From Thermoguttaceae bacterium (lineage in GTDB: Bacteria > Planctomycetota > Planctomycetia > Pirellulales > Thermoguttaceae), in the NCBI GenBank assembly GCA_045599865.1, contig JAZRWW010000024.1:17212-81211 (forward strand): a stretch of 64,000 bases of DNA, given 5' to 3'. A model generated the notes under the pieces. That model worked only from the letters and a program-made list of their open reading frames with translations, was not told the DNA's origin and searched no databases. The position numbers were made by a program, and so were the translations under genes. How positions within the stretch are numbered: position 1 is the stretch's first letter; each line of letters starts with the position of its first letter. Shown in pieces: positions 26,501 through 50,353 of the stretch.

Positions 26501-29500
26501 GGACAGGCCTATCTTTACAACTGTACGATCGCCGACAACACGGCCGGCGTTTACGGCGGCGTCTTTGCCAGCGACGGCTTGGTCGTTTTGGCAAACTCGA
26601 TCGTCGCGCGAAACGGCGGCGCGCAAAACGTCGACGTTTACGCGACGAACTTAGACGCGCACGCCAACTTGATCGGCGCTATGGACGCTTGGAAGTCCGT
26701 CGGAGGATTCAACGGAAACATCGTCGGAATTCCTTCTTCGCCCGTCGATCCGAAGTTTGTTGATTTTGAAGCGAACGACTTCTCGTTGCAAAACGATTCG
26801 TTGGCGGCAAACGCCGGACTCAACGCCTATGCGTTTGGACCGGACGGCGTGAGACTCAAGTTCGATTTGAACGCCGACGAGCGTATTGTCGGCGGAGTCG
26901 TCGATATGGGCGCGTTCGAATCTCAATACGCCGTCGACGTTCCTTCGACCGTCGTTACCACTTTGGTCGACGTCGTAGACCAGACCGACGGTTTGATTTC
27001 CTTGCGTGAAGCGATCGAGTACGCCAAGCAGCTCAAGACTCCGATCACGTTTGATTTGACCGAACAAGGAGACGACGATAAGAGCGATAAGGATAAGAGC
27101 GATAAGGATAAGAGCGACGAGGAATTTGAAGGTCAAGCCGAAATCCGTTTGGAAGGCGCCGAAATTGAAATTACCGACGACGTGATTATCGACGCGTCCA
27201 ACCTTAAGGGCGGCTTGACGATTTTCGGCGGCGATTCCCGTATCTTTAACGTCAACGGCGCCAAGCTCACGTTAAAGAACGTCGCCTTAACGGGCGGATA
27301 TGAGACTCGCGGCGGCGCGATCTATATGTCGAGCGGCGAATTGAACCTTACAAACGTTCTGATCTACGGCAACGACGCCGACGAAGAAGGCGGCGCGATT
27401 TACGCGAAGAGCGGCGCTGGGACTTTCCTGAACACGACGATCGCGGGCAACGACGCCGGAAATTATCAAGGCGTCTATTTCAACGGAACGTTGAATTTGC
27501 AAAACACGATTATCGCCGCGAATGCGAAAGAAAGTTCCGTCGCCGATTACAACTTCGACTTGAGCGTCAACGGCAAAATTACGTCGATCGCGAGTATCGT
27601 CGGTTTGGCGTCGAACGCCGTTGCGAATAATTTCAACGGAGTCAACGGCAACGTTTACGGTTCCGGCGAAAACATTGTCGATCCGGGCTTTGTCGCCGCC
27701 GAATCAAACGATTTCACCTTGACGCAAGATTCGATCGCCGTCAATACCGGCTCCAACCGCTTGATTGGTCAGCCCGGCTATTACGCGTCGATTCTGCAAA
27801 CGTCTTCCAACGCCGCTTATGTGCGCACCGATTTTGCCGGCGATCAACGTTTGGTCGGAAGCGCCGTCGACGTCGGCGCGTATGAATTCCAAACGGCTAC
27901 GGAGAATCCGTCGGTCGTCGTGACGACCTTGGACGACGTCGTGGATGCGTTCGACGGCGAGATTTCGTTACGCGAAGCGCTCGAATACGCGGGTTCCGCT
28001 TACGTCGTAGACGGCGAAGTAACTAAGGTTGGACGAACGATTACCTTTGATTCCGCGTTGGCGAACGGCGTGATTAAGCTTCAAAGTACTCTAGAAATTA
28101 CCAAGTGCGTTACGATCGACGCGACGGATTTGCAAGGTTCGTTGACTCTTGCCGCCGACTTTGAGGACGGACAAGACGGGTTTAACGCGTTGACGTTGAA
28201 CGCGGTCGCCGACTCGGTTCAAAGCGAGGTCTACGTTTGCGGTCTAGGAATTACCGGCGGTAAATCCGACTACGGCGCGGGCGTTTATCACCTTGGCGGC
28301 GACGCGACGTTGCTTAACTGCGCGATTTATGGAAACGAAGCGAATTACGGAGCCGGCGTCGCTTCCGCCGCGTCGAACGATTTTGACGCGTCGAGTAGTT
28401 TGCGCCTTGTCAACGTTACCGTGACGAAGAACGACGCCAAGGGCGCCTACGGCGGCATATGGACGCGAAGCGCTGAAATTACGTTGCATAACACGATCGT
28501 CGCCCAGAACACGACGAATGGAGAAAACGGCGCCGATATTTCTATTTCGAACGTTGGAAGTATGCTTTCTTCGATGATCGGAATCGCGTCGGGAACCTTC
28601 GCGCGAGAATACGACGGCGAGAACGCCAATATCGTGGGAACCGCCGATTCTCCTGCGTCTCCCTCCTTTAACGACTACGAGAACGACGATTTCACTTTGG
28701 CGCGCGACGCCGACGGCGTGGTCTCCGTCGCTGTCAACGCGGGCGACAACACCTTGTGCGTCTTGGCCGACGGCTCCGTGCCTACTATGGACGCCGGAAA
28801 TTCCGCTCGTATCGTCGGCGGCGTCGTCGATATGGGCGCGTTCGAGTCTGAACTTGGTCCTACGGAGATTCCGAACTTGATGGTTACGACGGCGGAAGAC
28901 GTCGTTGATCCTTACGACGGTTTGATCTCCTTGCGCGAAGCGACGATTTACGCGAATAGCTACGGTTTGGCCGGCACGATCTGCTTTGCCGAAAGATTGA
29001 GCGGCTCTACGATCTATCTCAACGAAACGTTGAGATTGTCCAACGATATTACGATCGACGGACTTGCGAACGGCGTCGTCGGCATAACGTTGACGACAGC
29101 CGATTCAGTCGAGGATCAACGTATCCTGTTGGTCGACGGCGGCGCGACGGTTATTAACGGTCTCACGATCACGAATCGTTATTCGGAACGCTTGCGAAAC
29201 GGCGGAACGTTGAATATCGAGCAGGGCGGCGCGGTTTATGTTCGCACGGGGACGCTTGCGCTCTACAATACGCTGATGACGGACAACGCCGCCGAATCCG
29301 GCGCCGCGATTTACGTCAACGAAAACAGCGCTTCCGCGACCGTTACGATCGTCAATTCGACGATCATCGCCAACGTCGGACTTACCGACGACGTTGTTAA
29401 AGGCGCCGCAATTTACAGCGAGCGGGGCGTCGTCAATCTTTGGAACACGATCGTCGCGACGAACAAGCTAGACGACGGAACTCTTGCGCAAGACGTTTAC

Positions 29501-32500
29501 AAAGGTTCCGACGTCTCTTCCGTCGACGTCGCGACGAAACGCGACACGGTGACGATCGCCGACGTTCCCGAGTACGAAGACGCGATTTGGACGTTCGTCA
29601 ACGGCGACGAGGTTCGTTACAATTACCAGACGTTGACCTATCAAGACGGCGAATTCTATACGCGCTACGGCGAGAAAGTTACGTTTGCGATCGAAGACAC
29701 TATCTCCGCAGGACAGACGGTCGAATTGGAGTATCGTTCGACCGGCGGTTCCAACGGTTGGTTTATCGAAGGCGTCGTTTACGACTTGGCTCCTCAGACG
29801 GGCGACACGTTCCAATGGACGAATTCTGCGACTGGTCAGACGTCGACGCTTTACTACTATAACGGGGAGTATCGACTCGGGTCGATGGGCGGAAAAGCCG
29901 TTTCCTTTACGGATGGCGATCGTCTAGTCGCAACGGCGCGCGTCAGTCTCGAATATCACGTCGACGGATTCCATCGTTTGAACGTCGTTCAGACTTCGAG
30001 CGGTTGGTTCCGTAGAGACTATAATTTGACGACGAGCGCCGCCGTCGAGTACGCGCAACAGGTTTTGGACGCCTTGCGTCAAGATTTGATTTATCAAACG
30101 TCTTATACGAAGGTCGTCAACGGCGTTAAGGTTACCTATCCGATTAAATCGGCGAGCGTCGAGATTACCGGGTATTCGGCGGAGGTGCGAACAGACTTGT
30201 TGCATTATACCGTCGACTATACCTATGCCGCCGCGTATACTTACGAGACGGAAGCGGGCGTTACCGTTCTCAATACGTTTGTTTCGATTTCCGATTCTCT
30301 CGCCTCGTTGACGTCCGGCGCAGGTTCCTTCATTGGAACGACGAGCAAGCCGTTGACGCGAGACGCGGAAGCGATGTTTGTCGACGCCGAGAACGGCGAT
30401 TACCATTTGACGAACCTGTCCCTTGCGACAAACGCGGGCAACAACTCGTATTTCAATCAGGGTACGATCAACGGAACGTTCGACTCGTTGGATATCGAGG
30501 GCAATCCGCGCGTTTACTATACGACGGTCGATATGGGCGCGTTCGAAAATCAGGAAGCGAAAGATTCGCCGATCGTCTCGATTTCCGGCAAGTCCGTGAC
30601 GTTGCAGGTTACGACGGGCGAAGACGACGTGGACTCGTCTGACGGCGTCACTTCGTTGCGCGAAGCGTTGCTGTTGGCAAATTCGCTTTACGAACGCGGA
30701 TACGAGAACGTTACGATCAACGTTAGAAGCGCCTATAAGATTACTTTGGACAGGTCGTTGGGCTCGCCGATTATTAATGCGCCGGTCGTTGTGAACGGCG
30801 CGTGTGCGACGATCGATTGCAATTCCGCAAGCAACGCCTTCGTCGTCGACACGGACGGCAAAGTCGTCTTGTCGAACTTGATTATTACGAACGGCGCGCT
30901 CACTTCCGGCGCCGGCGTTAAGCTGACTTCGGGCGACCTGACTCTTTCGAACTGCTTGATTTACGGTTGCGAAGCGACCGTTAAAGGCGGCGCGATTTAT
31001 ACGGAATCCAATGGAACGTTGGCGTTGTACAATACGACGATCGCCAAGAATGTCGCCGTTGACGGTTGCGGCATATACGGCGCCAAGGGTTCGAAAGTCG
31101 AGTTGTACAATTCGATCATAGCGGAAAATCGTTGCTCGGAGACCGGCGTCGACGTTACCGACGTCTCGTTCTACGGCGACTTTGCGATCAACGCCTCCTT
31201 GATTGGCAACGCCGGTTCGGAAGCAAACCAAAAAGCCTTGCTCGCCAAGTCGGTCGCGTCCAAGATCGGTTACGGCGTCGACGACAAGGTCGACCCGCTC
31301 TTCGTGAAGGCGAACGACGGAAACTTCAGAATTTCCGCAACGTCGAGTCCGGCGAAAAACGCGGGTTCGTCCGAGTACGTTTATCCGAATTCGCGCGATT
31401 TGGACGGAAATAACCTTAGCGGCGCCGCGTCCGTTAGTATGGGCGCGTATCAGATAGGTACGGAAGCGCGTTCGACGATCGTTACGACGCTTGAAGACGT
31501 CGTGGATCCGACCGACGGTTTGATCTCTTTGCGCGAAGCGGTCAATTACGCTTCCGACAACATAGCCGGAGCCGGTTGCGGCAGTATTGACAATAGCTCG
31601 TACAATACCGAAAACGCAATGAACAATCCGAGCGTTTATAGCGCGACTTACTACTCGCCGATTACCTTTGACGAAAGTTTGGCGGGCGGCACGATTAAAT
31701 TGCACGCCGGGATAACGTTTGACAGGTTGTCGGGTTCAGGCTCCGTGTACGACACTCTGATTGACGCCTCGGCATTGAGCGGATTGGGCGGTATCACGAT
31801 CGATTGCTCGGAAATTGTCGGAGGAACGGGCGGAGCGGTCTTCCAAGTTATTGGTCAAGGCGATCCTACCAACGGCATATATATGCCGGTTCATCTTGAC
31901 GTTCGCAACGTGAATATTGTCGGTTCTGGACGAGGAACGGCGTTTTCCGCGAATATGTACGGGATGGTAACGTTGCGCAACTGCTTGGTCGCCGGATTTG
32001 GCACGGGCGTTTCCGTCGGCGACAACGATAGCGATCAAGCTGGCGTCGCGCATATTTACAACACGACGATCGACGGAAATATTGTTGCGAGTGGTCCGAT
32101 CTTCGTCTACAATTCGTTGATTACGGGTCAGGCGCAGATACCTGTTACGCAAAATAATCCGGCGTATCGACGCGTCGATTCGTATTCGTCCTTTATCAAC
32201 GGATATAGCGGCTTGGCGCGACTCTACGGTTCCTATAAGTCGGGAACGGTAGAGGATCAGTTTGTTGATTATGCGAACGGCGACTATCGTTTGAACCCCG
32301 TGTCACTTTGCGTCAATAGCGCCGACGCCGCCTACGTTCAGACGTTGCAACCGACTCACGCGTTTGGCGAGGTCGATTTGAACGGCAATCCGCGTATTTA
32401 CTCCATCGTTGATATTGGTTGTTATGAATCGACTTACCTTGATATTCCTTCGACGACGGTAACGACGACTGAAGACGTCGTGGATCACAACGACGGTTTG

Positions 32501-38906: not shown

Positions 38907-40166
38907 ATGAACGATCGCAAGCGTGCGATTATTATTCCAGACGGATTTGCGGACGATCCGCTCGACGCGTTAAACGGACGAACGCCAATGCAGTTTGCTT
39001 CTACTCCGAATCTTGACGCGTTGGCGCCGCGCGGCGCGCAAGGACGTTCGCACAACGCGCCCGAGGCGTTGACGCCGGGTTCCGACGTTGCGACGCTCGC
39101 CTTGCTGGGATACGACCCGCTGGAGACGTATACGGGACGCGCGCCCTTGGAAGCGGCGGCTCAAGGAATTGAACTTGGCGCAAACGATTGGGCTTTTCGT
39201 TGCAATTTGGTTTGCCTTGAAGACGGCGCGATGAAAGATTTTACCTCCGGGCATATTTCTACGGCGGAGGCGACGGAACTTTTGTCGGGCGTTCAACGCG
39301 AGGTAGCGCCAGAATGGAAAAACATCGCCTCGGAATTGGGCGGAACCGTCGAGTTTTTACCGGGAGTCGGTTATCGTAATTTGGCGATATTTCGTCCCGA
39401 TTCCGACGCGCGACCTTTTCCGTTTGACTCGACGACGAAGACAGTTCCCCCTCACGACTATACGGGGCGTTCGATTCTTGACGTCCTTCCTCAGGGCGCA
39501 GGAAGCGAAGCCGTTTGTCGTTTAATGGAACTGTGCGCCGAATACCTCAAAAAGTCCGACGTAAACGCGCGGAGAATCGCCGAAGGCAAAACGCCCGCGA
39601 CGGATTGTTGGCTTTGGGGACAAGGCAAACGTCCGAAGTTGACGCCCTTTACGGAAGAATATCGTTGGGGCAAGGGCGCGATGATTACCGCCGTCGATCT
39701 ATTGCGCGGAATTGCGCGAGGTCTTGGCTGGTCGATAATCGACGTTCCCGGCGCCACCGGGTACGTCGACACCAATTTCGCGGCTAAGGGCGAATACGCG
39801 GCTCGCGCGTTGGACGAATACGACCTTGTTTGCGTTCACGTGGAAGCGCCCGACGAATCGGGGCACGAAGGAAGCGTCGAAAAGAAGATTTACTCCCTTG
39901 AACAGATCGATCAAAAGACCTTGCCGCCAATTCTCGACAAATTGCGAACGTTTGACAATTGGCGCTTGTTGATTTCGCCCGACCACCCGACGCCCGTCGC
40001 GATCAAGACGCATTCTCGCGGCTGGGTTCCTTGGGCGATTTTTGGTTCCGACGTTTCGGGCGACGGATTCGCTTCCTACGACGAAACGACGGCGGCTTTG
40101 TCTTCTCGTTTTTATCCTCAAGGACGACAATTAATGGAGCTTTTTTTAAGGGGCAATTTGCAATGA
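38907..40166 (+). CDS. apgM: Cofactor-independent phosphoglycerate mutase, archaeal-type (ApgM family)
   Basis: 'IIPDGFADDP...TPNLDALA', 'PGSDVATLALLGYDP', 'VHVEAPDESGHEG' and 'SPDHPTP' are metalloenzyme-superfamily ApgM motifs. Confidence 0.75.
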   Translation: MNDRKRAIIIPDGFADDPLDALNGRTPMQFASTPNLDALAPRGAQGRSHNAPEALTPGSDVATLALLGYDPLETYTGRAPLEAAAQGIELGANDWAFRCNLVCLEDGAMKDFTSGHISTAEATELLSGVQREVAPEWKNIASELGGTVEFLPGVGYRNLAIFRPDSDARPFPFDSTTKTVPPHDYTGRSILDVLPQGAGSEAVCRLMELCAEYLKKSDVNARRIAEGKTPATDCWLWGQGKRPKLTPFTEEYRWGKGAMITAVDLLRGIARGLGWSIIDVPGATGYVDTNFAAKGEYAARALDEYDLVCVHVEAPDESGHEGSVEKKIYSLEQIDQKTLPPILDKLRTFDNWRLLISPDHPTPVAIKTHSRGWVPWAIFGSDVSGDGFASYDETTAALSSRFYPQGRQLMELFLRGNLQ

Positions 40167-40945
40167 CGCGCTATTTTAACGTATTTACGACGACATTGTT
40201 AGCCGTATGTTTGACGTCGTGTCTGTTTAGCGAAGGCGTTCGCGCGGAAAATTCCAAAGAGTCTAAGCCGGTTTACGACGCGATCGCCGGTTCTCAAGCG
40301 GACGACGACAAATACGAATGGACGTCTCTTTTCGACGGTCAAACTTTGAAGTATTGGATCGACCTCAAAGACGCGGGCGACGACGTCGTTAGGGTTAAGG
40401 ACAGCGAGCTTATTCTTGGAATGGGACCGACGACGACTTCGATTCGATTTGACGAGGACGGCGCCGATTTTAAGTTTCCGCGCGAGAATTACGAACTTGA
40501 ATACGTCGCGCGTCGCACGTCCGGCTCCGATTTCTTCGCCGCCGCGACCGTTCCTATCGGGGAAAATTACGCGACGTTTGTAAACGGCGGCTGGGGCGGC
40601 TTTGTCGCCGGTATTTCAAGCGTAGACGATATGGACGCTTCGGAAAATTCGACTTCGTCGTTTTATAATTTCAAGACGAATCAGTGGTATCGATTCCGCG
40701 TTCAAGTTACCAAGCGCGTTATTCGCGTATGGATCAACGACGAAAAAATAATCGACTATGCGATCGAAGGACACTCCTTGAAGACGCGTTTCGAAGTTTC
40801 GCGTTGTCAGCCCCTTGGTTTCGCCAGTTGGGTTAGCGAAGGCGTTCTTAAAGTCGTTCGTTTTCGTATGCTTAACGAAGACGAGCTTAAGGATATGAAC
40901 GCTAAAGCCGACGCGACTCCTCAGCCCTTTAACTGGGGAAAATAA
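40163..40945 (+). CDS. Secreted DUF1080 (3-keto-disaccharide hydrolase / LamG-like) family protein
   Basis: Signal peptide 'MTRYFNVFTTTLLAVCLTSCLF'. Motifs 'WTSLFDGQTLKYW...VKDSELIL' and 'NQWYRFRVQVTKRVIRVWINDEKIIDY'. The ATG overlaps the apgM stop (ATGA at 40163-40166). Confidence 0.6.
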   Translation: MTRYFNVFTTTLLAVCLTSCLFSEGVRAENSKESKPVYDAIAGSQADDDKYEWTSLFDGQTLKYWIDLKDAGDDVVRVKDSELILGMGPTTTSIRFDEDGADFKFPRENYELEYVARRTSGSDFFAAATVPIGENYATFVNGGWGGFVAGISSVDDMDASENSTSSFYNFKTNQWYRFRVQVTKRVIRVWINDEKIIDYAIEGHSLKTRFEVSRCQPLGFASWVSEGVLKVVRFRMLNEDELKDMNAKADATPQPFNWGK

Positions 40946-40964
40946 ATCTTTTTCCTAGCGCGCG

Positions 40965-41372
40965 TCAAGCGTCGTTTTCAAAAAATAATCGGATTTCTCG
41001 TTCCGCCGCCTCTTGGGAGTCTGAAGCGTGAACGAGATTTTCGGTATAGTCAAAAGCGAAATCTCCTCGAATCGTGCCGGGCGCGGCTTCCAACGGATTT
41101 GTAGCGCCGACGATTTTTCTTGCAATTTTGACGGCGTTTTCGCCCGTCCATATCGACGCAAGAACGGGACCTCGAGTCATATACGCGACAAGTTCTTGAA
41201 AATAGGGCCGGGCTTCTAAGCTCTCGTAATGACGCCGCGCTAATTCGCGGGAGGCGACTTTCCACAAAAATCTTTTGGGACGCAAGCCTTTACGTTCAAA
41301 GCGCGCTATGATCTCGCCGACGAGTCCTCTTTCCAACGCGTCGGGCTTAAGCATTATAAACGTTTCTTCCAT
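40965..41372 (-). CDS. ndk: Nucleoside diphosphate kinase
   Basis: 'ETFIMLKPDALERGLVGEIIARFERKGL', 'GPVLASIWTGENAV', 'GATNPLEAAPGTIRGDFA' and the active-site 'NLVHASDS'. ATG 41372 was chosen; the ORF track starts at an upstream TTG. Confidence 0.9.
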   Translation of the reverse strand: MEETFIMLKPDALERGLVGEIIARFERKGLRPKRFLWKVASRELARRHYESLEARPYFQELVAYMTRGPVLASIWTGENAVKIARKIVGATNPLEAAPGTIRGDFAFDYTENLVHASDSQEAAEREIRLFFENDA

Positions 41373-41487
41373 TTTTCTTATTTTTTGGGGCGTTCGGCGC
41401 CCCGTCGTCGTCTTCGCTTGGATCAAATTGTAATTTTATTGCGCGCGTTTGGACGCGAGGCTTTAAAACGACCGACGTTTGCACGCC

Positions 41488-44061
41488 TTATTTTGATTTT
41501 CGGTCAAGTTCGTTTGGCGTAATGTTCGCGCTTCCAATAAAAACGTATTTAGTTTGATCGGATTGTTCCTTGCCCGTCGTTGAAACAAGGAAAAATTCAA
41601 ACGTCAGTTTGCCGTTTAACGTCGATTCGATCACGCGCGTTGCGTTTTGCAAACCGTCTTCCGTTGAAACGTAGTCGGAATCGTATGGAAAAGTCGAACT
41701 CGTCCGACGGCTAAAGTAATCCGTCAAATCCGTTTCCAACGTTTCTTTGTCAAGGATCGTTTCAGTTCGAATTACTTGGCTGTTACGCGTAAATCTTATT
41801 TTAAACGCGTCGACTTTTTCCGCTTTTAGGGCGAAAATAAACACGATCGATTTTTTTCTTTCGTCCATTTGCGAATCGACGGTAAACGCGCTTGACGTCG
41901 CGTCGGATTTCAGAAGAACCAAAAGCGCCGGACTATGTTTCGGATTACGAGCCGGATCGTAATAAGACAAGTCGTTTGGAACCGCCAGCGGCAATAGCCC
42001 TTCGTTTGACAACGCAATAACGGAGGCGACGTTTGGCGTTCCTTTTAACAAATCAAATTGGCAAGGTTTGAGCAGTTGTTCGTATTTTGTTTCGGCGACA
42101 AAGTCTTTTTCCGTTCCGTTTGGCGCGGACAGAAAGATCGACCATCTCAGCCGACTCGAGCGAAGAAAATAATTTCTTGTCGCTTCGTCCGACATATGAA
42201 AAATCAAGGTTCCCAGCGGATCGATTTCGATCGTAAAAGAACCGTTTTGTTCGTTTGTTTTGGAGTCGACCGTTTTGAAAACAACTTTTGTCGAATTAGA
42301 CGACTTGCCTCCGGAAAAATCAAATTCTTGTTTGTTGTTTCGGCGTCTTGAATCAAGCCATTGACGTTCGCCGTTTTGATCGGGCGAAAGATCGCAAGTT
42401 ACCGACAATTTGCCGTTATATTTTTGACATAGATTCAGAACTTCTGAAAAAAGTTCTTGCGAATTTTCGTCTATTTCTTCGTCTAACGTCCAAGCGCTTG
42501 AATCTCCCTTGCGTTGGAAGACGCCGAAATCGACCGTGAATTTACGAGCGACGACCGAATCTTGAAAATCGACGATTTTTTGATACTCTTCCGACGTTAA
42601 AAATGGGGATTGAGAGACCGACGCTTCCGAAGGAATTGGAAATAAGGCGCTAAGATCCGTTCCCCCGTCGACTCCTTTGGGGCTCGAAGCAGAATCGGAG
42701 AGTTCGTTTGGCGTCTCTTCGAGGGAAGCGACGTTCGGGTCGTTTTCTTTATCGTCTTCTTTTACGTTCTCTTCTTCGTTGACGGCGCCTGGTTCGTTTA
42801 TTTTTTCCTTTTGAGATTCGGAGGATTGGTTTGAAACGCTATTTTGATCGGTCGAAACTATTGCGTCGTCGCTAGATTGCGAGACGTCCAGATTAACGGA
42901 TGGTTCCGACGTGGCGAGCGTTTCGTTTTGCGGAATAATTTCTTGAAGATTCTTCGTTTGTTTTGAAGCGCCGTCGGCGAGAACGATTCCAAGCGTAATT
43001 AACGCCGCCAATGCGAGGAGACCTATCGATGCGCCGCCGACAAGACGCCAACGCTCGCGTTCAAGAATTTTTTTCGTAAATGACGCCGGCGAATTGTACG
43101 CCGCAGGACGCGCTTGCATTCCTTTTTCTGGTTTCGTATTTTTTTCTTGGATTTCCGCTTTGGAATCGTCGAGGGCGTCGAAACTATCCTCTTGACGCTC
43201 GAACGCGGACGGGGCGTCGGCTGAAGAGGACGAAACGGAATTGTCGCGCGTCAGCTTTCTTGCGACGTTGATTAAGTTGGACGCTTGAGGAAACGAATCG
43301 ATCGTTTCCTCCGCCGACGTTATGCGCTTCGACGTTAGATCAAGAATAAGCGCGTCGGGAATTGCGCGCAACGCTTGCGATTCGCTAGAACCGACTATTG
43401 TAGCTTTCCACTGACAACGGACGCCCGGAGGCGTCTTTGCGTAGTACGTTGAAAAAGTCGCTTGCCAACGCATAGCGGGCGAGAGAAGCGACAAGGCTTC
43501 TTGATATAATTTCAAGACGTCGTGTTCTGGACGAACGATCAATACGACGGGACGATCCGCGTAGACCGTAGAAGCCAACACGCCCGCCCAGCCTGAATCG
43601 CCGGTGATTTTTTTCCATTCTTCACAGGAGCCTGTTATAGACGCGATTTGAGGCAGTTCAAAAGACTTGTCGAATACTTGCGGTTCTTCTTCCCAGCGTT
43701 TGTCAAATAATCCCGGTTCTGAAAAAAAAACCGTCGGTCCAGCTTCGCGTAATTCAGTTGGTTCTAGAATCAGATGACAGGCTATTTTGTTGTTTCGATC
43801 ATTATAATCTAGGCCCGCGTCGGCTATTCTGGATAGAACGCGTAAAGTCGTTTCTCCGTCGTCTAATAGAACGTGCGAATATACGATCGGGTTTTGCGAA
43901 ACTTGTTCCTCGTCGACGAAGAGTCGGCGATATCCCGAAAAAGCCTCGAGCGCGGCGATCATCCTTTCCGAAAGATTGCGGGAACAAGCGACGGTGCAAA
44001 ACCCAAACGAACCTTCTTTTATTCCTTTGGGCGCCGACGTGTAAACTAATTTGAACGCCAT
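41488..44061 (-). CDS. 857-aa single-pass membrane protein: GAP1-N2-like N-terminal domain, TM, acidic/Ser-rich linker, unknown beta-rich C-terminal domain
   Basis: The N-terminus 'MAFKLVYTSAPKGIKEGSFGFCTVACS...DAGLDYNDRNNKIACHLIL' fits the 'YTS..G..G..GF...S...DYsgR.gN..aH.l' signature. One TM helix 'WRLVGGASIGLLALAALITLGIVLA' is preceded by basic residues. A low-complexity stretch of about 150 aa follows, then ~370 aa with no motif I recognise. Confidence 0.65.
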   Translation of the reverse strand: MAFKLVYTSAPKGIKEGSFGFCTVACSRNLSERMIAALEAFSGYRRLFVDEEQVSQNPIVYSHVLLDDGETTLRVLSRIADAGLDYNDRNNKIACHLILEPTELREAGPTVFFSEPGLFDKRWEEEPQVFDKSFELPQIASITGSCEEWKKITGDSGWAGVLASTVYADRPVVLIVRPEHDVLKLYQEALSLLSPAMRWQATFSTYYAKTPPGVRCQWKATIVGSSESQALRAIPDALILDLTSKRITSAEETIDSFPQASNLINVARKLTRDNSVSSSSADAPSAFERQEDSFDALDDSKAEIQEKNTKPEKGMQARPAAYNSPASFTKKILERERWRLVGGASIGLLALAALITLGIVLADGASKQTKNLQEIIPQNETLATSEPSVNLDVSQSSDDAIVSTDQNSVSNQSSESQKEKINEPGAVNEEENVKEDDKENDPNVASLEETPNELSDSASSPKGVDGGTDLSALFPIPSEASVSQSPFLTSEEYQKIVDFQDSVVARKFTVDFGVFQRKGDSSAWTLDEEIDENSQELFSEVLNLCQKYNGKLSVTCDLSPDQNGERQWLDSRRRNNKQEFDFSGGKSSNSTKVVFKTVDSKTNEQNGSFTIEIDPLGTLIFHMSDEATRNYFLRSSRLRWSIFLSAPNGTEKDFVAETKYEQLLKPCQFDLLKGTPNVASVIALSNEGLLPLAVPNDLSYYDPARNPKHSPALLVLLKSDATSSAFTVDSQMDERKKSIVFIFALKAEKVDAFKIRFTRNSQVIRTETILDKETLETDLTDYFSRRTSSTFPYDSDYVSTEDGLQNATRVIESTLNGKLTFEFFLVSTTGKEQSDQTKYVFIGSANITPNELDRKSK

Positions 44062-44505
44062 AGCCGTTTTATCCTGTTGTTGTTTCGTTATTTCGACCGT
44101 CGAGGAGAACGTCTTGTGTTTTTTGAACGATTTAAACGTTTAGACCTGTCGCCAAGTTAATTGACGGAGGTTATGATTTATCGACGATAACTCGCCGTAC
44201 TTACAAGGTCGACAAGAACAAGACGCCGAAACAAATCAAATTTTAACGTTTTTTATTTCGTAATGTGAAAACGCTATGCGTCGAAATGAAGAAATAAAGC
44301 GCGTAATCGATCGTTCTATTGTCGTTTTGGACGTCTTTGAATTTAACGCCGACTAGTCGAGACGCGCGACGAATTAACTTGACGAACAATATTGCCAACC
44401 TACGACGAGTAAAGTCGATTCTTCTTGTTTAATTTGCGTCGCGCTGGAATTTCAAACGAACGTTGAAATTGACGCCGTTCCGCTTTTTTTAGCGCGGATA
44501 CTTTT

Positions 44506-45441
44506 TTAATGCGAATTGGGTAGTAATTTTGCGACAAAGGGCGCCAGCAAGCCCGCCGTCTGCGCCGCGCTTAACGATTGAAACGTCGCGCGTCCCGGCC
44601 CCGTAACTACCGTGTCGAAAACGCCTTCGCCGCCGAAAAGCATATTTTTGATTCCTTTGACGAACACGACGTCGACCGTGCAAGTAGCGTCCATCCACGC
44701 CAGCGCGCCAGTGTCGCAAGTTACTCGTTCTCCAGGCTGAAGATCGTATTCGACCGGGGCTCCGTCGATTTCCAAAAAAACGACGCCCGGTCCCGTCAAT
44801 TTTTGCATAAAGAAGCCTTCGCCGCCAAAGAACCCGGTCGTCAATTTTTTCTGAAAGAAAGTTTCCAACGTAACGCCGGGCGAGGCGGCAAGAAAGGCTC
44901 CTCGCTGACAGACGACTGATTCGCCTTGCGCAAGTTGACGCGCGACGATCGCGCCGGGCAGTTTCGTAGCAAACGCGATTTCCGAAGGCGACTGCGCAAC
45001 GTAGGTCGACATAAAGAACGTTTCTCCGTTGACCATTCGTCCAAGCGCTTTTAAAAAGCCGCCTTGAGCGTTGTTAGACGTTTCGACGTTTCCTTTCATC
45101 CAGACGCGTCCGCCGGAGGAACTGTAAACGGAACGTCCCGAATCGAGATAACATATAACGTAAGGAACGTTCCCTCCGCCAATGTAATAGTCTAAAAAGG
45201 GCGTACGAATAACTCGCGGATCGTTGGAGTCGCGAGGGGCGCGTTCGCCTCCGATATTTGAGGCCGGCGGCGCGACTGGACGACCTCCGAACACGATTCC
45301 TTGCACGTTGTCGCAGGTCGTCTCTTTTCCTTCGACCCAAAGACGCGTTTTTGGGAAGATTACGCCTGACGCGGCAAGTTGAAAAAGTTCCGTCGACGTT
45401 ATGTCGCGTCGACGACCGTTTTGTTCAATCTGAAGTCGCAT
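44506..45441 (-). CDS. AIM24/TIGR00266 (DUF124) family protein with N-terminal GYF_2-like domain
   Basis: The C-terminal ~230 aa read 'LDSGRSVYSSSGGRVWM...ETFFMSTY...GESVVCQRGAFLA...GFFGGEGFFMQKLTGPGVVFLEIDG...LQPGERVTCDTGALAWMD...LFGGEGVFDTVVTGPGRATFQSL', which is typical of AIM24. The N-terminal 'ITSTELFQLAASGVIFPKTRLWVEGKE' is GYF_2/DUF4339-like. Confidence 0.7.
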   Translation of the reverse strand: MRLQIEQNGRRRDITSTELFQLAASGVIFPKTRLWVEGKETTCDNVQGIVFGGRPVAPPASNIGGERAPRDSNDPRVIRTPFLDYYIGGGNVPYVICYLDSGRSVYSSSGGRVWMKGNVETSNNAQGGFLKALGRMVNGETFFMSTYVAQSPSEIAFATKLPGAIVARQLAQGESVVCQRGAFLAASPGVTLETFFQKKLTTGFFGGEGFFMQKLTGPGVVFLEIDGAPVEYDLQPGERVTCDTGALAWMDATCTVDVVFVKGIKNMLFGGEGVFDTVVTGPGRATFQSLSAAQTAGLLAPFVAKLLPNSH

Positions 45442-45585
45442 TTTAGACCGTTATAAGATTGTTTGAAGAATTGTTTCCACTTCTTGATAAAAGCAAAGCT
45501 TTGGTTTGACAAGAGTCGACCGTTTTACGGCGTCCGATCAAACCAAAGCGTCTATTTAACGCGTCAAAACGCGTCGTCGAAAGAA

Positions 45586-48500
45586 TCAGTCTTCGATAAC
45601 GAGACGAATTCCGACGTTGTGAACTTTCTGCCAAGGCAAGTACGCTTGACGGAAGGAAGAACCGGCGATTTTCGGACGATCCGCCCAAGAGGCGCCGCGC
45701 GCGACTTTACGCGCCGAGGCGTCGAGGTCGTTGCGCCCGTCGGCGTCGTTATACGGATACGCCTTGTAATCGGAGCGGGTCCATTCGGCGACGTTTCCGA
45801 TCATATCGTACAATCCCCACGCGTTCGGGAGATTCTGCGCGACGTAGTCGACGATGAACCAATGATCCTTGAATCGATTATCGCGGAGCGGGAAGACGCT
45901 GTTTTCCGGGTAATCGTGTCGGACGTGGATCGTCGCCCCGTTTTCCCACATCGTGTAAAGTCGTCGACGGTCGGCGTCGGCAAGGTTCGCGTATTTCGAG
46001 AAGTCGGCTTCAAACGAACCGAAATAGAACTTTTCGGCGCTACCCGCGCGAGCCGCCCATTCCCATTGCGCTTCAGTCGGCAACGCGGCTTTGACGCCCT
46101 TTTCTTCGTTCAACCATTGAACGAACCTTTGCGCTTCGTTCCAGCTGACGCGCGCGACAGGCTGATTCGGGTGATTCGCGATATAACCGGGTACGATGTG
46201 GTCTTTGCCGTGTTCCTCGATGTAACGCGTGTCGTGTTCGGGATCAAACGCGGCGTATTGCGCGTTGGTGATCTCCGTCTTGCTCATCCAGAAAGGCTTG
46301 TCGACGACGATTTCCGCGCGCGGATTTTCGTCGGCGCAACCGTCAAGCGATCCCATTACGAATTTTCCGGATGGAATACGAACAAATTCAACGTTTACGC
46401 CGTCGGCAAGTTCGACCGTCTTTGTCGCGGCGCCATTCGCCAACGCTTGCTTTTGCATCGCTTTAGCGGCGGCTTCGTCGAACGCCCAATCGTTTTTGAG
46501 ATCGTCGGTCGGCTTGACGTATTTTTCCGGCTTGACAAATTCCGGCGCCGGTTTCGCTTGCATCGCGGCGAGGAGTTGGTCGTATTCGCTTTCGACGTCG
46601 ACGGCGGCGGATTCCGCGTACAATTCGGAGAGTTCAAGACGTCGTTTCGCTTCGGGCTCGTTGCCCCACTTGCCGCGCCACGGCGCGTTGAAATCGATCC
46701 AGTTGACGATCAAACGCTTGGCTTCGTCGTCCAATTTGACGTTGTAGTGTCCCTTTTCCAGCATTTGGACAAGTTCGCTCGTCGACGCGTGGTATTCGTA
46801 GGGGGGCAAAACGTCCATATCCGTTTCCGGACCAGGACGACGTACGAACGGGTGAATATTGTTGTAGGCGCTTCCCGCGTCGGCAAAGGACGGACGATCC
46901 GTTTTGGAGCCGTCGTGGCAACCGATGCAGTATTTCTTCACGACGCGGTGATAAAGGTCGAGTTCAAACGTAATCGAACGACGGGGACCAAGATATTCTT
47001 GAATTTCCACAGGTTCGTGACGCGAAGCCTCTTTCAAGACCGACTGCGTGGCGTCAAGTTGCGACTCGTGGCAACCGTTGCAACTGACGTTTTCACCCGG
47101 CATACCGACGAACCAACTGCGGAAGAGTTGCACGGAAGCTCCGTTTTTATCGACGGGAAGCAACGCGACGGGCGTATTCGCCGGAATCTTAAAGAACGCG
47201 GAACCGTCCTTTTCGACGGGCACGTAACCGAGCAAGCGTTTAATGTCCCAGCTGCTTTGAACGCCGACGGATTCGTGACCGCCGGTGTGCAAATACGCGA
47301 AGTGATACGCGAAGACTTTCAAGCCGACGATTTCGCCTTGAGGAACGTTTTCCGTGCCGAAGCCGTTGTAGACGTCCGTAATGAAGACCGTCGCTTCTTT
47401 GTTTCCCTCTTCGACGCGATTAGGAAGAACCGGCGGGAGATCGCGTTCGACAAGAGGCGTCGGGAAGAAATATCCCTTGCCTTCGACGATCGCGATCGGC
47501 GTCATATTGTCGAACGTGTCGACAAGATAAAGACCGTAAGTACCGGGCGCGCCGTCGATTTCGCAGTTGACAAGAATGTAGTTCTCGCAAAGGGGATAGG
47601 GGAAGACGAAGTTATACTTTAAGCCGGTCGACTGCATATCCAGAACGTTGCCTACGACGTCGCGTCCGTAACCGGGAATTTCCGCGACAAAGCCGGTCTT
47701 TTCGGCGGGAAGTACTTCAGGATGACAGTCGTATTGAGTATTTTCCGGTCCCCATTCGAGCCCGGTGGGATGGAAGCGGAAAGGATACTTGCGCGCGATC
47801 GTCGGATCGATAATAAGCAAACGTCCCGTGTCGCCGCGTCCGTGGTGCCCGGAGCCAATTCCGACGATCTTGGAAGAATCGGGGAACTCGCGCGCGTGTT
47901 TGAACGCGGTTGGGAAGAAGGAGCCGGAGCCGTAAAGTTCCGCTTGATTTGTGCCGTCCGGATTCATATGGAACAGAATTCGGCTGTAATAGTGCATAAT
48001 GTCGCTGTATTCCCAGCGCAGATACATAATACGACCGTTTTTCAAGGGGGTCGGATGCCAGTCGGAGTCTTGCTCGTAGGTGAGTTGACGTACTTTTTTC
48101 GTTTCCGGGTCGATCAGATAAATATTCGCCATCGGGTCGGAACCGTTGATACAGGGCAAGCCTTGTTTTCCGGCGTTCGAACAGGCGACGACTTTGCCTT
48201 CGGGCGTGTAGCATGAATCGAAGAAGTCGACGTCGGGCTGATCGGTAGGCGAGAGCGTTTTGAGCCCCGTGCCGTCCGCGTTGATTTCGAAAATAGCCCA
48301 ACGTTGGTTGTCTTCCGAAATCGACGAGAACATAATTCTTTCGCCGTCCCAGTTGAGTTCGGGCTCGAGAATCGGTCGCCCCTTTTCCGGCTTGTAAATC
48401 GACGTGAAGGTCGGATTATCGGAACGCAAATCGGAAAGGATTCCAAGCTCGGCGTCCCAGCCGCCCTTAGAAACTTTGTCGATCGTCATAAAGTCGTCGC

Positions 48501-48840
48501 CAACGGCGGGAAGACGCGACGTTTTCACGACGACAAGTTCCAAGTCGTCAAGTTCGGGCAACGCAAGGAGCGCTTTACGACGGAATTGCGCGAACTTCGC
48601 TTGCCACGCTTCGTCTTTCGGTTCCGCTTTTTCAAGCTCGTCTAATTCCGCCAAGTAGGCTTCGCCGTCCGCGTAATCGTCGCCGAACTGCGTAATCATA
48701 TCGTTAATAGCGCGACGAACAGATTCGACCGTGTTCATTGGTCGATCGTTGTCGTTGCCGGGAAATTGCCTCGCTTGTGACGTCGGCGCAAATAGCGCAA
48801 GCGACGCGATCAACGCGACGGCGTAAAGCATACGTTTCAT
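45586..48840 (-). CDS. Secreted multidomain protein: TolB-like beta-propeller region, two CxxCH haem-c motifs, C-terminal SUMF1/FGE (formylglycine-generating enzyme-like) domain
   Basis: Signal peptide 'MKRMLYAVALIASLALFAPTSQA'. 'DGERIMFSS...INADGTGLKTL' propeller-like repeats. 'CNGCHE' (nt 47065-47082) and 'CIGCHD' (nt 46913-46930). FGE motifs 'FVRIPSGKFVMGS', 'PVARVSWNEAQRFVQWLN', 'LPTEAQWEWAARAG', 'GLYDMIGNVAEW', 'RGASW' (nt ~45586-46400). Confidence 0.75.
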   Translation of the reverse strand: MKRMLYAVALIASLALFAPTSQARQFPGNDNDRPMNTVESVRRAINDMITQFGDDYADGEAYLAELDELEKAEPKDEAWQAKFAQFRRKALLALPELDDLELVVVKTSRLPAVGDDFMTIDKVSKGGWDAELGILSDLRSDNPTFTSIYKPEKGRPILEPELNWDGERIMFSSISEDNQRWAIFEINADGTGLKTLSPTDQPDVDFFDSCYTPEGKVVACSNAGKQGLPCINGSDPMANIYLIDPETKKVRQLTYEQDSDWHPTPLKNGRIMYLRWEYSDIMHYYSRILFHMNPDGTNQAELYGSGSFFPTAFKHAREFPDSSKIVGIGSGHHGRGDTGRLLIIDPTIARKYPFRFHPTGLEWGPENTQYDCHPEVLPAEKTGFVAEIPGYGRDVVGNVLDMQSTGLKYNFVFPYPLCENYILVNCEIDGAPGTYGLYLVDTFDNMTPIAIVEGKGYFFPTPLVERDLPPVLPNRVEEGNKEATVFITDVYNGFGTENVPQGEIVGLKVFAYHFAYLHTGGHESVGVQSSWDIKRLLGYVPVEKDGSAFFKIPANTPVALLPVDKNGASVQLFRSWFVGMPGENVSCNGCHESQLDATQSVLKEASRHEPVEIQEYLGPRRSITFELDLYHRVVKKYCIGCHDGSKTDRPSFADAGSAYNNIHPFVRRPGPETDMDVLPPYEYHASTSELVQMLEKGHYNVKLDDEAKRLIVNWIDFNAPWRGKWGNEPEAKRRLELSELYAESAAVDVESEYDQLLAAMQAKPAPEFVKPEKYVKPTDDLKNDWAFDEAAAKAMQKQALANGAATKTVELADGVNVEFVRIPSGKFVMGSLDGCADENPRAEIVVDKPFWMSKTEITNAQYAAFDPEHDTRYIEEHGKDHIVPGYIANHPNQPVARVSWNEAQRFVQWLNEEKGVKAALPTEAQWEWAARAGSAEKFYFGSFEADFSKYANLADADRRRLYTMWENGATIHVRHDYPENSVFPLRDNRFKDHWFIVDYVAQNLPNAWGLYDMIGNVAEWTRSDYKAYPYNDADGRNDLDASARKVARGASWADRPKIAGSSFRQAYLPWQKVHNVGIRLVIED

Positions 48841-48958: not shown

Positions 48959-50353
48959 CTAATTTTTAATTTTACTTTCGATAAACGTTTCCACGCTTTG
49001 CATCGAAGAAGCGCCAAAACAATAACGTTGAATAGACCTCAACGTGGGCATATCCTTCAGCGTTTCTAGTAGATAATCATAATTTGCCGATAAAGGCTCG
49101 TTTGGAAAACGGGTCGCGAGGAAACAACGTATTGAATGAACGCATTCGCCGATTCTTCCGGCGTCTTGTCCTTCTTTCCAGCCGTCGTTGCGTCCCTCTT
49201 TCCAGCCGTCGTTACGTCCCTCTTTCCATGCTTCTAAACGCAACTCTTTATCCCACTGAGCGCCGTATTTTTTCATAGCGCTTTCATAATATTCCTGATC
49301 CAATAGCTCGATCATTTGTTTTTCATACTCCTTGTCTTTCATCTCGTCGGCGAGACGTTCAAATTCCCGAGGCTTGGGCGAACGTTTCCAACTAACGCAG
49401 GCTTTAGACCAATACCCAAGTAAAGCCAACAGAAGTTGATACGAGGAATTGTCTAATTTAACGTCGCGCAAATCGCCGAAAACGTCGAGTATGTCGGCGT
49501 CTTTCAATTTAGGATTTTTGCCGAATTGCAAGTTTTTGAGAAAAGCTTTCGTCATCGGGCGAACGTCGAGCGAATTGACGTCGACGCTCTGAACGTCGAA
49601 GAACACGACGTCAAAATCGGGAACGAACGCTTCTAATTCGGCTGGAAAGGAACAGACTTCTTTTAATTTTTTCGGTTTGGTTCCGGCGCGGTCGTAACAA
49701 CCGATCACGACCGGGATCGGACAAACGAGTTTTTTCAGACCCGATTGCGTTCGTTTCGCGTTGATCAACTGATATTTTAAATACAACGCGACATATTCAA
49801 GAAGTTGAACGGCAAGAAACGGATCATACGACGACTTATGCTCGAAAAAGAACGCGTAGACGCGCTCTTCGTCCCTTGCAAGATTTTTCACGTTGTAAAT
49901 CAAGTCGGAAATATGCGCGATTCCGTTGCGATCGACCTGTTCTTGTTGCGTCGGCTGGAGCGTGTTCCAGTCGACGTCGGTCGCGTTTGTCGCAACGCGC
50001 AACAGATCGGCGGCGATCGTTAAATCTGTCAACGCCGCGACGACAAGGTTGTTATGACGACTAAACTTGACTTCGTATTCTTGCAAATCGGGCGCAAAAA
50101 GCGAGCCGCGCGTTAAAAGCGTCTCGCGACGCAACGCCGTTTCAAATAGGTCGGGCGAATCCCAATCGCGCCACGACAATACAAAATCAAGAACGCGCCT
50201 TTGAAAGGCGTTCGAGTCGTTTGTCGAGTTTTCGAGAGATTGACGACGCGCGACTAGGTTTGTCCTTGCTCGTTCGAGTTCTTCCCACTCTTGAGTTTGT
50301 TCTTCTTCCATCGTTGCAACGTTCTGATTCTTATGTGAAAAACGCCAAAACAA
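48959..50353 (-). CDS. Rpn-family recombination-promoting nuclease / PD-(D/E)xK putative transposase-like protein
   Basis: 'ISDLIYNV....RVYAFFFEHKSSYDPFLAVQLLEYVALYL' fits the Rpn core (sDlly.v...illEhQS..d..m..Rll.Y). The C-terminal 'WKEGRNDGWKEGRNDGWKEGQDAG' repeat is like the EG-repeat tail of this family. The start is uncertain (50353 or ATG 50311). Confidence 0.55.
   Translation of the reverse strand: MFWRFSHKNQNVATMEEEQTQEWEELERARTNLVARRQSLENSTNDSNAFQRRVLDFVLSWRDWDSPDLFETALRRETLLTRGSLFAPDLQEYEVKFSRHNNLVVAALTDLTIAADLLRVATNATDVDWNTLQPTQQEQVDRNGIAHISDLIYNVKNLARDEERVYAFFFEHKSSYDPFLAVQLLEYVALYLKYQLINAKRTQSGLKKLVCPIPVVIGCYDRAGTKPKKLKEVCSFPAELEAFVPDFDVVFFDVQSVDVNSLDVRPMTKAFLKNLQFGKNPKLKDADILDVFGDLRDVKLDNSSYQLLLALLGYWSKACVSWKRSPKPREFERLADEMKDKEYEKQMIELLDQEYYESAMKKYGAQWDKELRLEAWKEGRNDGWKEGRNDGWKEGQDAGRIGECVHSIRCFLATRFPNEPLSANYDYLLETLKDMPTLRSIQRYCFGASSMQSVETFIESKIKN

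Follow-up and report, generated by a model that had tools for sequence, protein, structure and literature searches.

GAP1 proteins are often fused to C-terminal transmembrane (TM) segments with extracellular domains, and planctomycete GAP1-N2 systems are coupled to GYF proteins, as set out in the one paper that a literature search for GAP1-N2 returned (Kaur, Burroughs, Iyer and Aravind, eLife 2020; PMC7159879). The gene described here encodes an 857-amino-acid (aa) GAP1 on the minus strand of a 64,000-nucleotide stretch of DNA from a Thermoguttaceae bacterium (assembly GCA_045599865.1, contig JAZRWW010000024.1, positions 17,212 to 81,211 of the forward strand), a stretch that is called the window throughout, and its relatives belong to the GYF-linked GAP1-N2 theme of planctomycetes. 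Like the proteins of that theme, the window GAP1 has a GAP1-N2/M head, a C-terminal TM fusion and a variable extracytoplasmic domain, and its relatives likewise stand directly after a DO-GTPase and near GYF proteins fused to TM regions or trypsin. Unlike them, it lies outside any GTPase operon, has no detected GAP1-C-type domain, and carries an extracytoplasmic domain that is neither a cadherin nor a member of any Pfam family; where the published theme has an FNIII companion, the operon of its relatives has a protein of ~970 aa without an FNIII Pfam match. We read the gene as a single-pass membrane GAP1 that has diverged and been relocated from a planctomycete GAP1-N2 operon and that probably serves as an extra or alternative sensor subunit acting with a DO-GTPase encoded elsewhere (probability about 0.6). 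The GAP1-N2 system is already known, and what is new is the stray, constrained copy outside the operon together with a DENN-like lead at the level of the family; in annotation it should be labelled as a membrane protein of the GAP1-N2 family and as a paralogue, relocated, of the DO-GTPase system's GAP1, rather than as half of a novel sensor-effector pair with AIM24. Its parts, in window coordinates, are these:

41488..44061, minus strand: GAP1-family gene, 857 aa (P0001), ATG start (open reading frame (ORF) call and Pfam)
43648..44061, minus strand: GAP1-N2 domain, residues 1-138, the longin-like lobe of the head model (Pfam PF20013)
43366..43626, minus strand: GAP1-M domain, residues 146-232, the alpha/beta lobe of the head model (Pfam PF20014)
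43051..43221, minus strand: cytoplasmic juxtamembrane linker, residues 281-337, predicted to be disordered (predicted local distance difference test (pLDDT) below 50 in the head model)
42961..43050, minus strand: single TM segment, residues 338-367 (Kyte-Doolittle scan)
42595..42960, minus strand: acidic and Ser-rich spacer, residues 368-489 (sequence; low pLDDT)
41491..42594, minus strand: lineage-restricted extracytoplasmic alpha/beta domain, residues 490-857 (predicted model)
43722..43730, minus strand: T9 run in the coding strand, codons for Phe-Phe (homopolymer count)

The first-pass annotation of the locus quoted the N-terminal sequence correctly and had recognised the GAP1-N2 N-terminus by eye, and Pfam bears this out (residues 1-138, E 7.2e-23, 81.6 bits against a cut-off of 24) and adds a GAP1-M domain that the annotation had not named (residues 146-232, E 1.4e-9, 38.5 bits against a cut-off of 24). 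A third globular domain of the GAP1-C type was not detected, Pfam at E<=1 giving beyond N2 and M only weak matches to LolA and P30, and in the head model GAP1-M is followed only by helices at 250-276 and then by the disordered linker. Just one hydrophobic segment was found in a Kyte-Doolittle scan (residues 338-367, peak 2.48), the same single TM feature being seen in the homologues P0005, P0006, P0007, P0010 and P0012. The basic stretch KKILERERWR stands directly N-terminal to this segment and fits an N-in orientation by the positive-inside rule, from which we infer that the head is cytoplasmic, so that the single N-in helix proposed earlier holds by hydropathy for the segment and by inference for its direction. 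The acidic, Ser-rich spacer and the C-terminal domain of ~370 aa were also correctly anticipated, except that the spacer (368 to ~489) is ~120 rather than 150 aa long and the domain is predicted to be mixed alpha/beta rather than purely beta.

A homologue search with the window GAP1 gave 127 matches, mostly of 750-1000 aa, from sources named Thermoguttaceae, Pirellulales and Planctomycetia bacterium and also Rosistilla, Stieleria and Lacipirellula, among others; GAP1-N2 is present in all 123 homologues listed and GAP1-M in all but two of them. Alignment over the full length was obtained only for P0005 (92% identity), P0006 (75%), P0007 (56%) and P0010/P0012 (30%). Matches occur in 37 of 201 genomes at the level of the order, always through the head, in 105 of 261 at the level of the family and in 19 of 31 within the genus. 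A DO-GTPase homologue (~435 aa) lies directly upstream of GAP1 in 19 of the 20 fetched order-level loci by phmmer, and in the 20th, which has frame breaks, it was found by tblastn. Pfam scanning of the neighbours in 13 of these 20 loci (121 of 185 ORFs) found DO-GTPase2 in 6, GYF_2 proteins in 10 and MotA_ExbB-like proteins in 6; two of the GYF_2 proteins are fused to Trypsin_2, one to vWA, and several have TM regions of the DUF4190 type, while the gene directly after GAP1 usually encodes the ~970-aa protein, which has no Pfam match at all. The canonical operon thus runs DO-GTPase, GAP1, ~970-aa protein, GYF_2/TM protein and MotA/ExbB-like protein, and members of the genus usually carry two such operons in tandem, 10-15 kb apart. 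The survey of homologue neighbourhoods that the first-pass annotation had proposed therefore yields a conserved partner, the DO-GTPase, but not a conserved link to the AIM24 gene next door, and the annotation's larger claim, that of an undescribed module partnered with AIM24, is not supported: relatives stand in DO-GTPase-led operons at 20 of 20 order-level loci, the adjacency to AIM24 is found only here and in genome G379, and both the TM-fused GAP1 and the planctomycete GYF link are already reported in PMC7159879.

Three further observations concern the canonical operon itself. Its MotA/ExbB-like protein (locus L045, 15287-16252, and equivalents) has a weak PADLOC match to ZorA of Zorya (best E 4.9e-5), and the canonical GAP1 system may contain a proton-channel-type component. 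At locus L155 (G084:C5, 2300-9900) a canonical operon has its GAP1, ~970-aa and GYF genes in several frames, through decay or assembly errors. At locus L054 (G171:C1, 14766-17021) a canonical GAP1 operon has a gene for a RepC-like replication protein 3.6 kb away, and this copy of the operon may sit on a plasmid-like or integrated element.

The window gene can be placed within this family as a copy that has left its operon. In a quick maximum-likelihood (ML) tree of 58 heads, the window protein, its G379 orthologue, P0006 and P0007 form one clade (Shimodaira-Hasegawa-like approximate likelihood ratio test (SH-aLRT) 100), which is nested inside the genus clade of GTPase-linked GAP1s (SH-aLRT 99), and the window gene thus appears to be a diverged, relocated paralogue of the operon GAP1. 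Every genus GAP1 that shares its C-terminal domain stands directly after a DO-GTPase except the orthologue in G379, which is 93% identical and is the only full-length orthologue in the 261 family genomes. The synteny in G379 is the same as in the window: QueG, ndk, GAP1, AIM24, the HZS/FGE gene, a YhgA-like transposase gene and a DUF1559 gene. The transposase gene (Transposase_31, 48959-50353, minus strand) adjoins the HZS/FGE gene and is 89% identical in G379; since it is conserved there, it is not a recent insertion marking the rearrangement.

Measured against G379, the ratio of nonsynonymous to synonymous substitution (dN/dS) of the window GAP1 is 0.19 overall, 0.13 in the head and 0.17 in the C-terminal domain, with the highest value of five gene parts (0.48) in residues 246-337, and the flanking genes span values of 0.04-0.30, which include that of the window gene; of the columns in which 76 heads do not vary, 15 in number, the window protein keeps every one. 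These comparisons indicate that the gene is under purifying selection. They bear directly on the view that it is a decaying, functionless remnant of a lost operon, for which it could be said that searches of this assembly did not find the operon partners and that degraded operons exist elsewhere (the G084 locus, with multiple frame breaks). Such a remnant is very improbable, given the low dN/dS overall and in the folded domains, intact full-length ORFs in four lineages down to 56% identity, and models in which both domains fold confidently.

As the first-pass annotation had stated, no GTPase is adjacent: by Pfam the window neighbourhood holds none, the upstream gene being AIM24 and the downstream gene ndk, and the neighbours are housekeeping or unrelated genes. 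The source assembly (4.65 Mb, 358 contigs, 92.6% complete) has two GAP1-N2 genes, the one in the window and one on contig C199, and C199 also carries its only DO-GTPases. The order at that locus (C199:1-17036, L003) is a partial HSP70 gene, an HSP70-vWA gene, a gene for a 1081-aa double-zinc-ribbon protein, a DO-GTPase, a GAP1 with N2 and M, a second DO-GTPase and two paralogues of 878 and 928 aa, which are 31% identical to each other and have no Pfam match. This is a complete HSP70-type GAP1-N2 system, matching the HSP70 theme described in PMC7159879. It resembles the window gene in having a GAP1 with N2 and M domains, there flanked by two DO-GTPases, and differs from it in GAP1 subfamily and in partners. 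The tblastn searches of this genome found no ~970-aa protein (three queries) and no GYF/TM protein (two queries), the DO-GTPase, ~970-aa and GYF/TM queries giving nothing beyond a weak match to the C199 GTPase, and two MotA-like queries gave only weak matches (26-30% identity) to one distant gene of the MotA/ExbB family. In G379 a canonical operon is present as well, on a different contig; one flank of that operon (95% identical) maps inside contig C254 of the present genome, which runs on into unrelated, partly repetitive sequence, and this suggests that a G379-type canonical operon is not at the C254 site here, while its absence from the genome cannot be claimed from an incomplete assembly.

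Loci at which GAP1 stands without a GTPase recur in the family. In G299 the order is LigT, GAP1, ~970-aa protein, GYF and MotA, in G446 it is HemC, GAP1 and ~970-aa protein, and in G442 and G444 a short GAP1 (402-434 aa) with only N2 and M lies among housekeeping genes. The short genes are at 8114-9418 of L151 and 9830-11038 of L152, with RibD, sigma-70 and GDP-mannose dehydratase genes as neighbours and the cognate DO-GTPase on other contigs. In all five of the other genomes with GTPase-less GAP1 loci that were checked (G299, G446, G442, G444 and G379) a cognate DO-GTPase is encoded elsewhere, which supports action in trans as the general solution for such loci. The same survey bears on a second alternative, in which the relocated GAP1 would work without a GTPase, either as a membrane decoy or regulator that titrates the canonical partners or as a stand-alone envelope sensor with a DENN-like binding platform. 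This fits an assembly in which the cognate DO-GTPase, ~970-aa and GYF/TM genes were not found and the gene is nevertheless conserved and constrained, and it fits the short N2+M proteins of another genus, which show that uncoupling recurs; the five genomes with a DO-GTPase elsewhere, a head that keeps all family-invariant residues, as retained partner binding would have it, and the incompleteness of the assembly nonetheless make it unlikely.

How the head might engage a GTPase is suggested by its predicted fold. A model built from the 76-sequence alignment has a pLDDT of ~95 across residues 1-280, and its best Foldseek matches are complexes of the Rab35 exchange factors DENND1A/B (E 2e-5, probability 1.0), followed by TagF, folliculin/FNIP, C9orf72-SMCR8 and DENND10. 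Alignment of residues 1-276 with VIA gave Z 8.2 for DENND1B (root-mean-square deviation 4.8, 227 residues aligned), 7.7 for DENND1A, 7.6 for DENND10 and 6.9 for TagF, a bacterial protein that is regarded as DENN-like. A search of 48,161 chains that was independent of Foldseek ranked DENND1A (Z 7.7), DENND10 (7.6) and TagF (6.9) as its top three, each over residues 1-275, with a Lokiarchaeal longin domain next (Z 5.3, residues 1-143), and the C-terminal DENN lobe of folliculin aligned with residues 145-271, the GAP1-M part (Z 4.4). DENN modules and the GAP1 head are thus alike in having two lobes, longin-like and then alpha/beta, and the GAP1 family is also genetically coupled to GTPases. They differ in that the head has neither sequence or profile similarity to DENN proteins nor a clear d-DENN lobe, just two helices (250-276) following the alpha/beta lobe before the disorder in the model, and in that the partner of GAP1 is a DO-GTPase and that of DENN modules a Rab, Rag or Arf. 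In its main text PMC7159879 makes no mention of DENN, longin, roadblock or TagF. A 2012 paper derives longin from MglB-like domains of prokaryotes and gives DENN and d-DENN as known only as parts of the DENN module, and a literature search for a bacterial or prokaryotic DENN or DENN-like fold returned no prokaryotic case other than by fold. A 2026 preprint mentions profilin-longin-like domains that partner GTPases in unpublished anti-selfish-element systems, and it may partly anticipate the idea of a DENN-like GAP1.

In the mechanism that follows from reading the gene as a relocated sensor subunit, the variable extracytoplasmic domain would sense an envelope or extracellular cue, and the TM helix would relay the signal to the DENN-like head in the cytoplasm. 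There the head would regulate a DO-GTPase, or serve it as a platform or scaffold. The gene for this GTPase would lie at another locus: the canonical operon in the sister species, and in the present genome either the distant HSP70-type system or a locus missing from the assembly. The downstream outputs would be those of the canonical system, and the protein would provide a conflict or signalling system with an additional or alternative sensor subunit rather than being part of a self-contained AIM24 module.

A number of results weigh against this account. The cognate DO-GTPase was not found in this genome by tblastn with three DO-GTPase queries, the assembly being incomplete, and the trans partner is a proposal; cross-talk with the C199 GTPases is doubtful because the C199 GAP1 is too distant for BLAST or phmmer to connect it to the window protein, neither a genome search at E<=1e-5 nor tblastn at E<=1e-3 linking the two. 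The tree is a quick ML search only, scans of metagenome contigs for the contexts of P0007 and the relocated clade gave no relative, and a search of sequencing runs listed no RNA run and DNA runs with only small shares (<=0.18). For the head, no DENN-family Pfam match was obtained at E<=1 in the window GAP1, a phmmer search of the PDB sequences with residues 1-280 had 0 matches at E<=1, and the DENN matches have Z of 6.9-8.2, where Z below 8 is middling by the tool's own yardstick. A DENN-like architecture, in which the longin lobe corresponds to GAP1-N2 and the DENN lobe to GAP1-M, is still the best reading of the modelled head, because the matches are coherent and cover both lobes despite their middling Z. 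The stronger proposal is that the DENN module has a prokaryotic homologue in the GAP1-N2/M head, which is linked genetically to a TRAFAC GTPase of its own, the DO-GTPase; it is tentative, and we put it at slightly worse than even odds from the models.

The C-terminal domain had been called unassignable, and so it proved. It was modelled from a 15-sequence alignment as a mixed alpha/beta fold (pLDDT 82.8, predicted template modelling score 0.81), with the first 12 residues of the model (471-482) below a pLDDT of 50. Foldseek against the PDB gave no convincing match (best E 1.9e-4, with TM-scores <=0.2), a wide VIA search gave at best Z 5.1 for Ig-like V domains on model residues 25-195, which is within noise, the domain's profile had 0 matches among PDB sequences, and the ESM Atlas gave no usable match. 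LolA was considered as its identity and set aside, a Pfam E of 0.024 and a Foldseek E of ~1e-2 being judged insufficient. Only 8 clusters match the domain at E<=1e-3 among 1.84 billion representatives, and it is common to the operon-encoded GAP1s of the genus at 18-25% identity; it is thus lineage-restricted and matches no solved fold.

The neighbours of the gene come into play through the AIM24 gene upstream, and they are as follows:

44506..45441, minus strand: GYF_2-like plus AIM24 protein, 311 aa (P0002) (Pfam; a neighbour, not a shown partner)
45586..48840, minus strand: protein with an HZS_alpha middle domain and an FGE-sulfatase domain, 1084 aa (P0003) (Pfam)
40965..41426, minus strand: nucleoside diphosphate kinase gene (ndk), downstream of GAP1 (Pfam NDK, 8.4e-50; syntenic in G379)
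44240..44269, minus strand: promoter-like site TTCACA-18-TAAAAT in the gap between AIM24 and GAP1 (consensus match only)

ORF calls confirm the layout first given for the pair, an 857-aa ORF at 41488-44061 and a 311-aa ORF at 44506-45441, both on the minus strand and separated by 444 bp (44062-44505). The upstream protein is an AIM24/TIGR00266 member as annotated (PF01987, E 3.6e-61; TIGR00266, 99.8 bits against a cut-off of 96.6), and its GYF_2-like N-terminus is likewise upheld. That N-terminus is below the Pfam GYF_2 threshold (best E 0.09), with 9 of 16 orthologues matching weakly, and it has replaced two Trp residues that are conserved in GYF_2; hhalign against true GYF_2 domains from GAP1 operons gave 93% probability (E 3e-7, 31 columns), and among 14 family-level AIM24 homologues, 13 pass the GYF_2 cut-off at the corresponding place. 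By sequence comparison it is probably a diverged GYF_2 domain, and 14 of the 31 genus genomes have an AIM24 orthologue with this N-terminal domain.

The GYF link to GAP1 systems is suggestive, and a two-gene module can be imagined in which the GYF domain docks AIM24 onto GAP1 as an output, comparable to the GYF-trypsin, GYF-vWA and GYF-TM proteins of canonical operons: this GAP1 subfamily characteristically has GYF_2 proteins as neighbours (10 of the 13 loci scanned), the AIM24 N-terminus is GYF_2-like, and the two genes are on the same strand and keep their adjacency in G379. That adjacency, however, is known only from two species with 93%-identical GAP1s and is effectively a single recent event. 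GAP1 is absent near AIM24 in all 12 other fetched genus AIM24 loci, although those genomes hold GAP1 operons on other contigs, and the family-level GYF_2-AIM24 fusions lie on contigs other than those with GAP1 matches. The usual genus neighbour of AIM24 is not GAP1 but the HZS_alpha/FGE-sulfatase gene, whose orthologue stands upstream on the same strand in 11 of the 12 loci (82-91% identical), at a distance of <=350 bp in six of these and 1.3-4.7 kb in the rest. The 444-bp gap contains the promoter-like site, which has 10 of 12 consensus matches and its second hexamer in a block conserved with G379, the count of such sites in the region (5) being close to that in shuffles (3.1 +/- 1.9). Taken with these points, a GAP1-AIM24 module is improbable. 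A complex prediction for the GAP1 head (1-337) with the GYF-AIM24 protein scored 0.00 against a mark of 0.32, was run without controls and is no evidence either way. The gap has no notable small ORFs, Rfam on 40800-45700 gave 0 matches at E<=0.1, and PADLOC-DB 2.0 protein models gave 0 families for P0001, P0002 and P0003 at E<=0.01, the proteins of the canonical operon having only weak matches there.

Other features of the AIM24 surroundings were recorded in passing. The 1084-aa HZS_alpha/FGE protein has a signal-peptide-like N-terminus, looks like one half of a conserved pair with GYF_2-AIM24, and has paralogues on contigs C172, C22 and C281. One genus member has three tandem GYF_2-like AIM24 copies and a fragment (L142, G374:C35, 8282-11495), and AIM24 gene triplets also occur in several other family genomes.

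The T9 run noted earlier as an additional feature does exist; its bases, 43722-43730, code for the two Phe residues in 'TVFFSE'. As a phase-variation site it was rejected: the run is T7 in the G379 orthologue and is one of 13 homopolymer runs of at least 8 bases in the window, and it is unremarkable. Elsewhere in the window, the neighbours include DUF1559/N-methyl and DUF1598 proteins besides the HZS_alpha/FGE-sulfatase protein, and a giant ORF of 5266 aa, the giant protein mentioned in the first-pass annotation, occupies 17543-33343 on the plus strand. A phosphoglycerate-mutase ORF (38907-40166) and a 3-keto-disaccharide-hydrolase ORF (39959-40945), both on the plus strand, overlap by ~200 nt as listed; the true start of the latter is probably further downstream, its Pfam match beginning at residue 120.

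The relocated gene implies that GAP1 sensor subunits of these little-studied conflict or signalling systems can leave their operon and stay under selection, acting in trans or in a GTPase-independent role, and its rare, confidently folding extracytoplasmic domain is a candidate ligand or envelope sensor. The DENN-like fold predicted for the head may offer a testable mechanism for the GAP1 family, as a platform, a guanine nucleotide exchange factor or a GTPase-activating protein for the DO-GTPase. If the head is a true homologue of the DENN module, a DENN-GTPase pair anchored in the membrane, of a kind thought to have arisen with eukaryotic membrane traffic, would be present in planctomycetes and in other bacteria with GAP1, and the stray copy would be a receptor-like DENN protein, its DENN head joined by a TM helix to a sensor domain outside the cell. 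The DENN-like head may also bear on the origin of DENN modules, and the lead applies to the whole GAP1 family.

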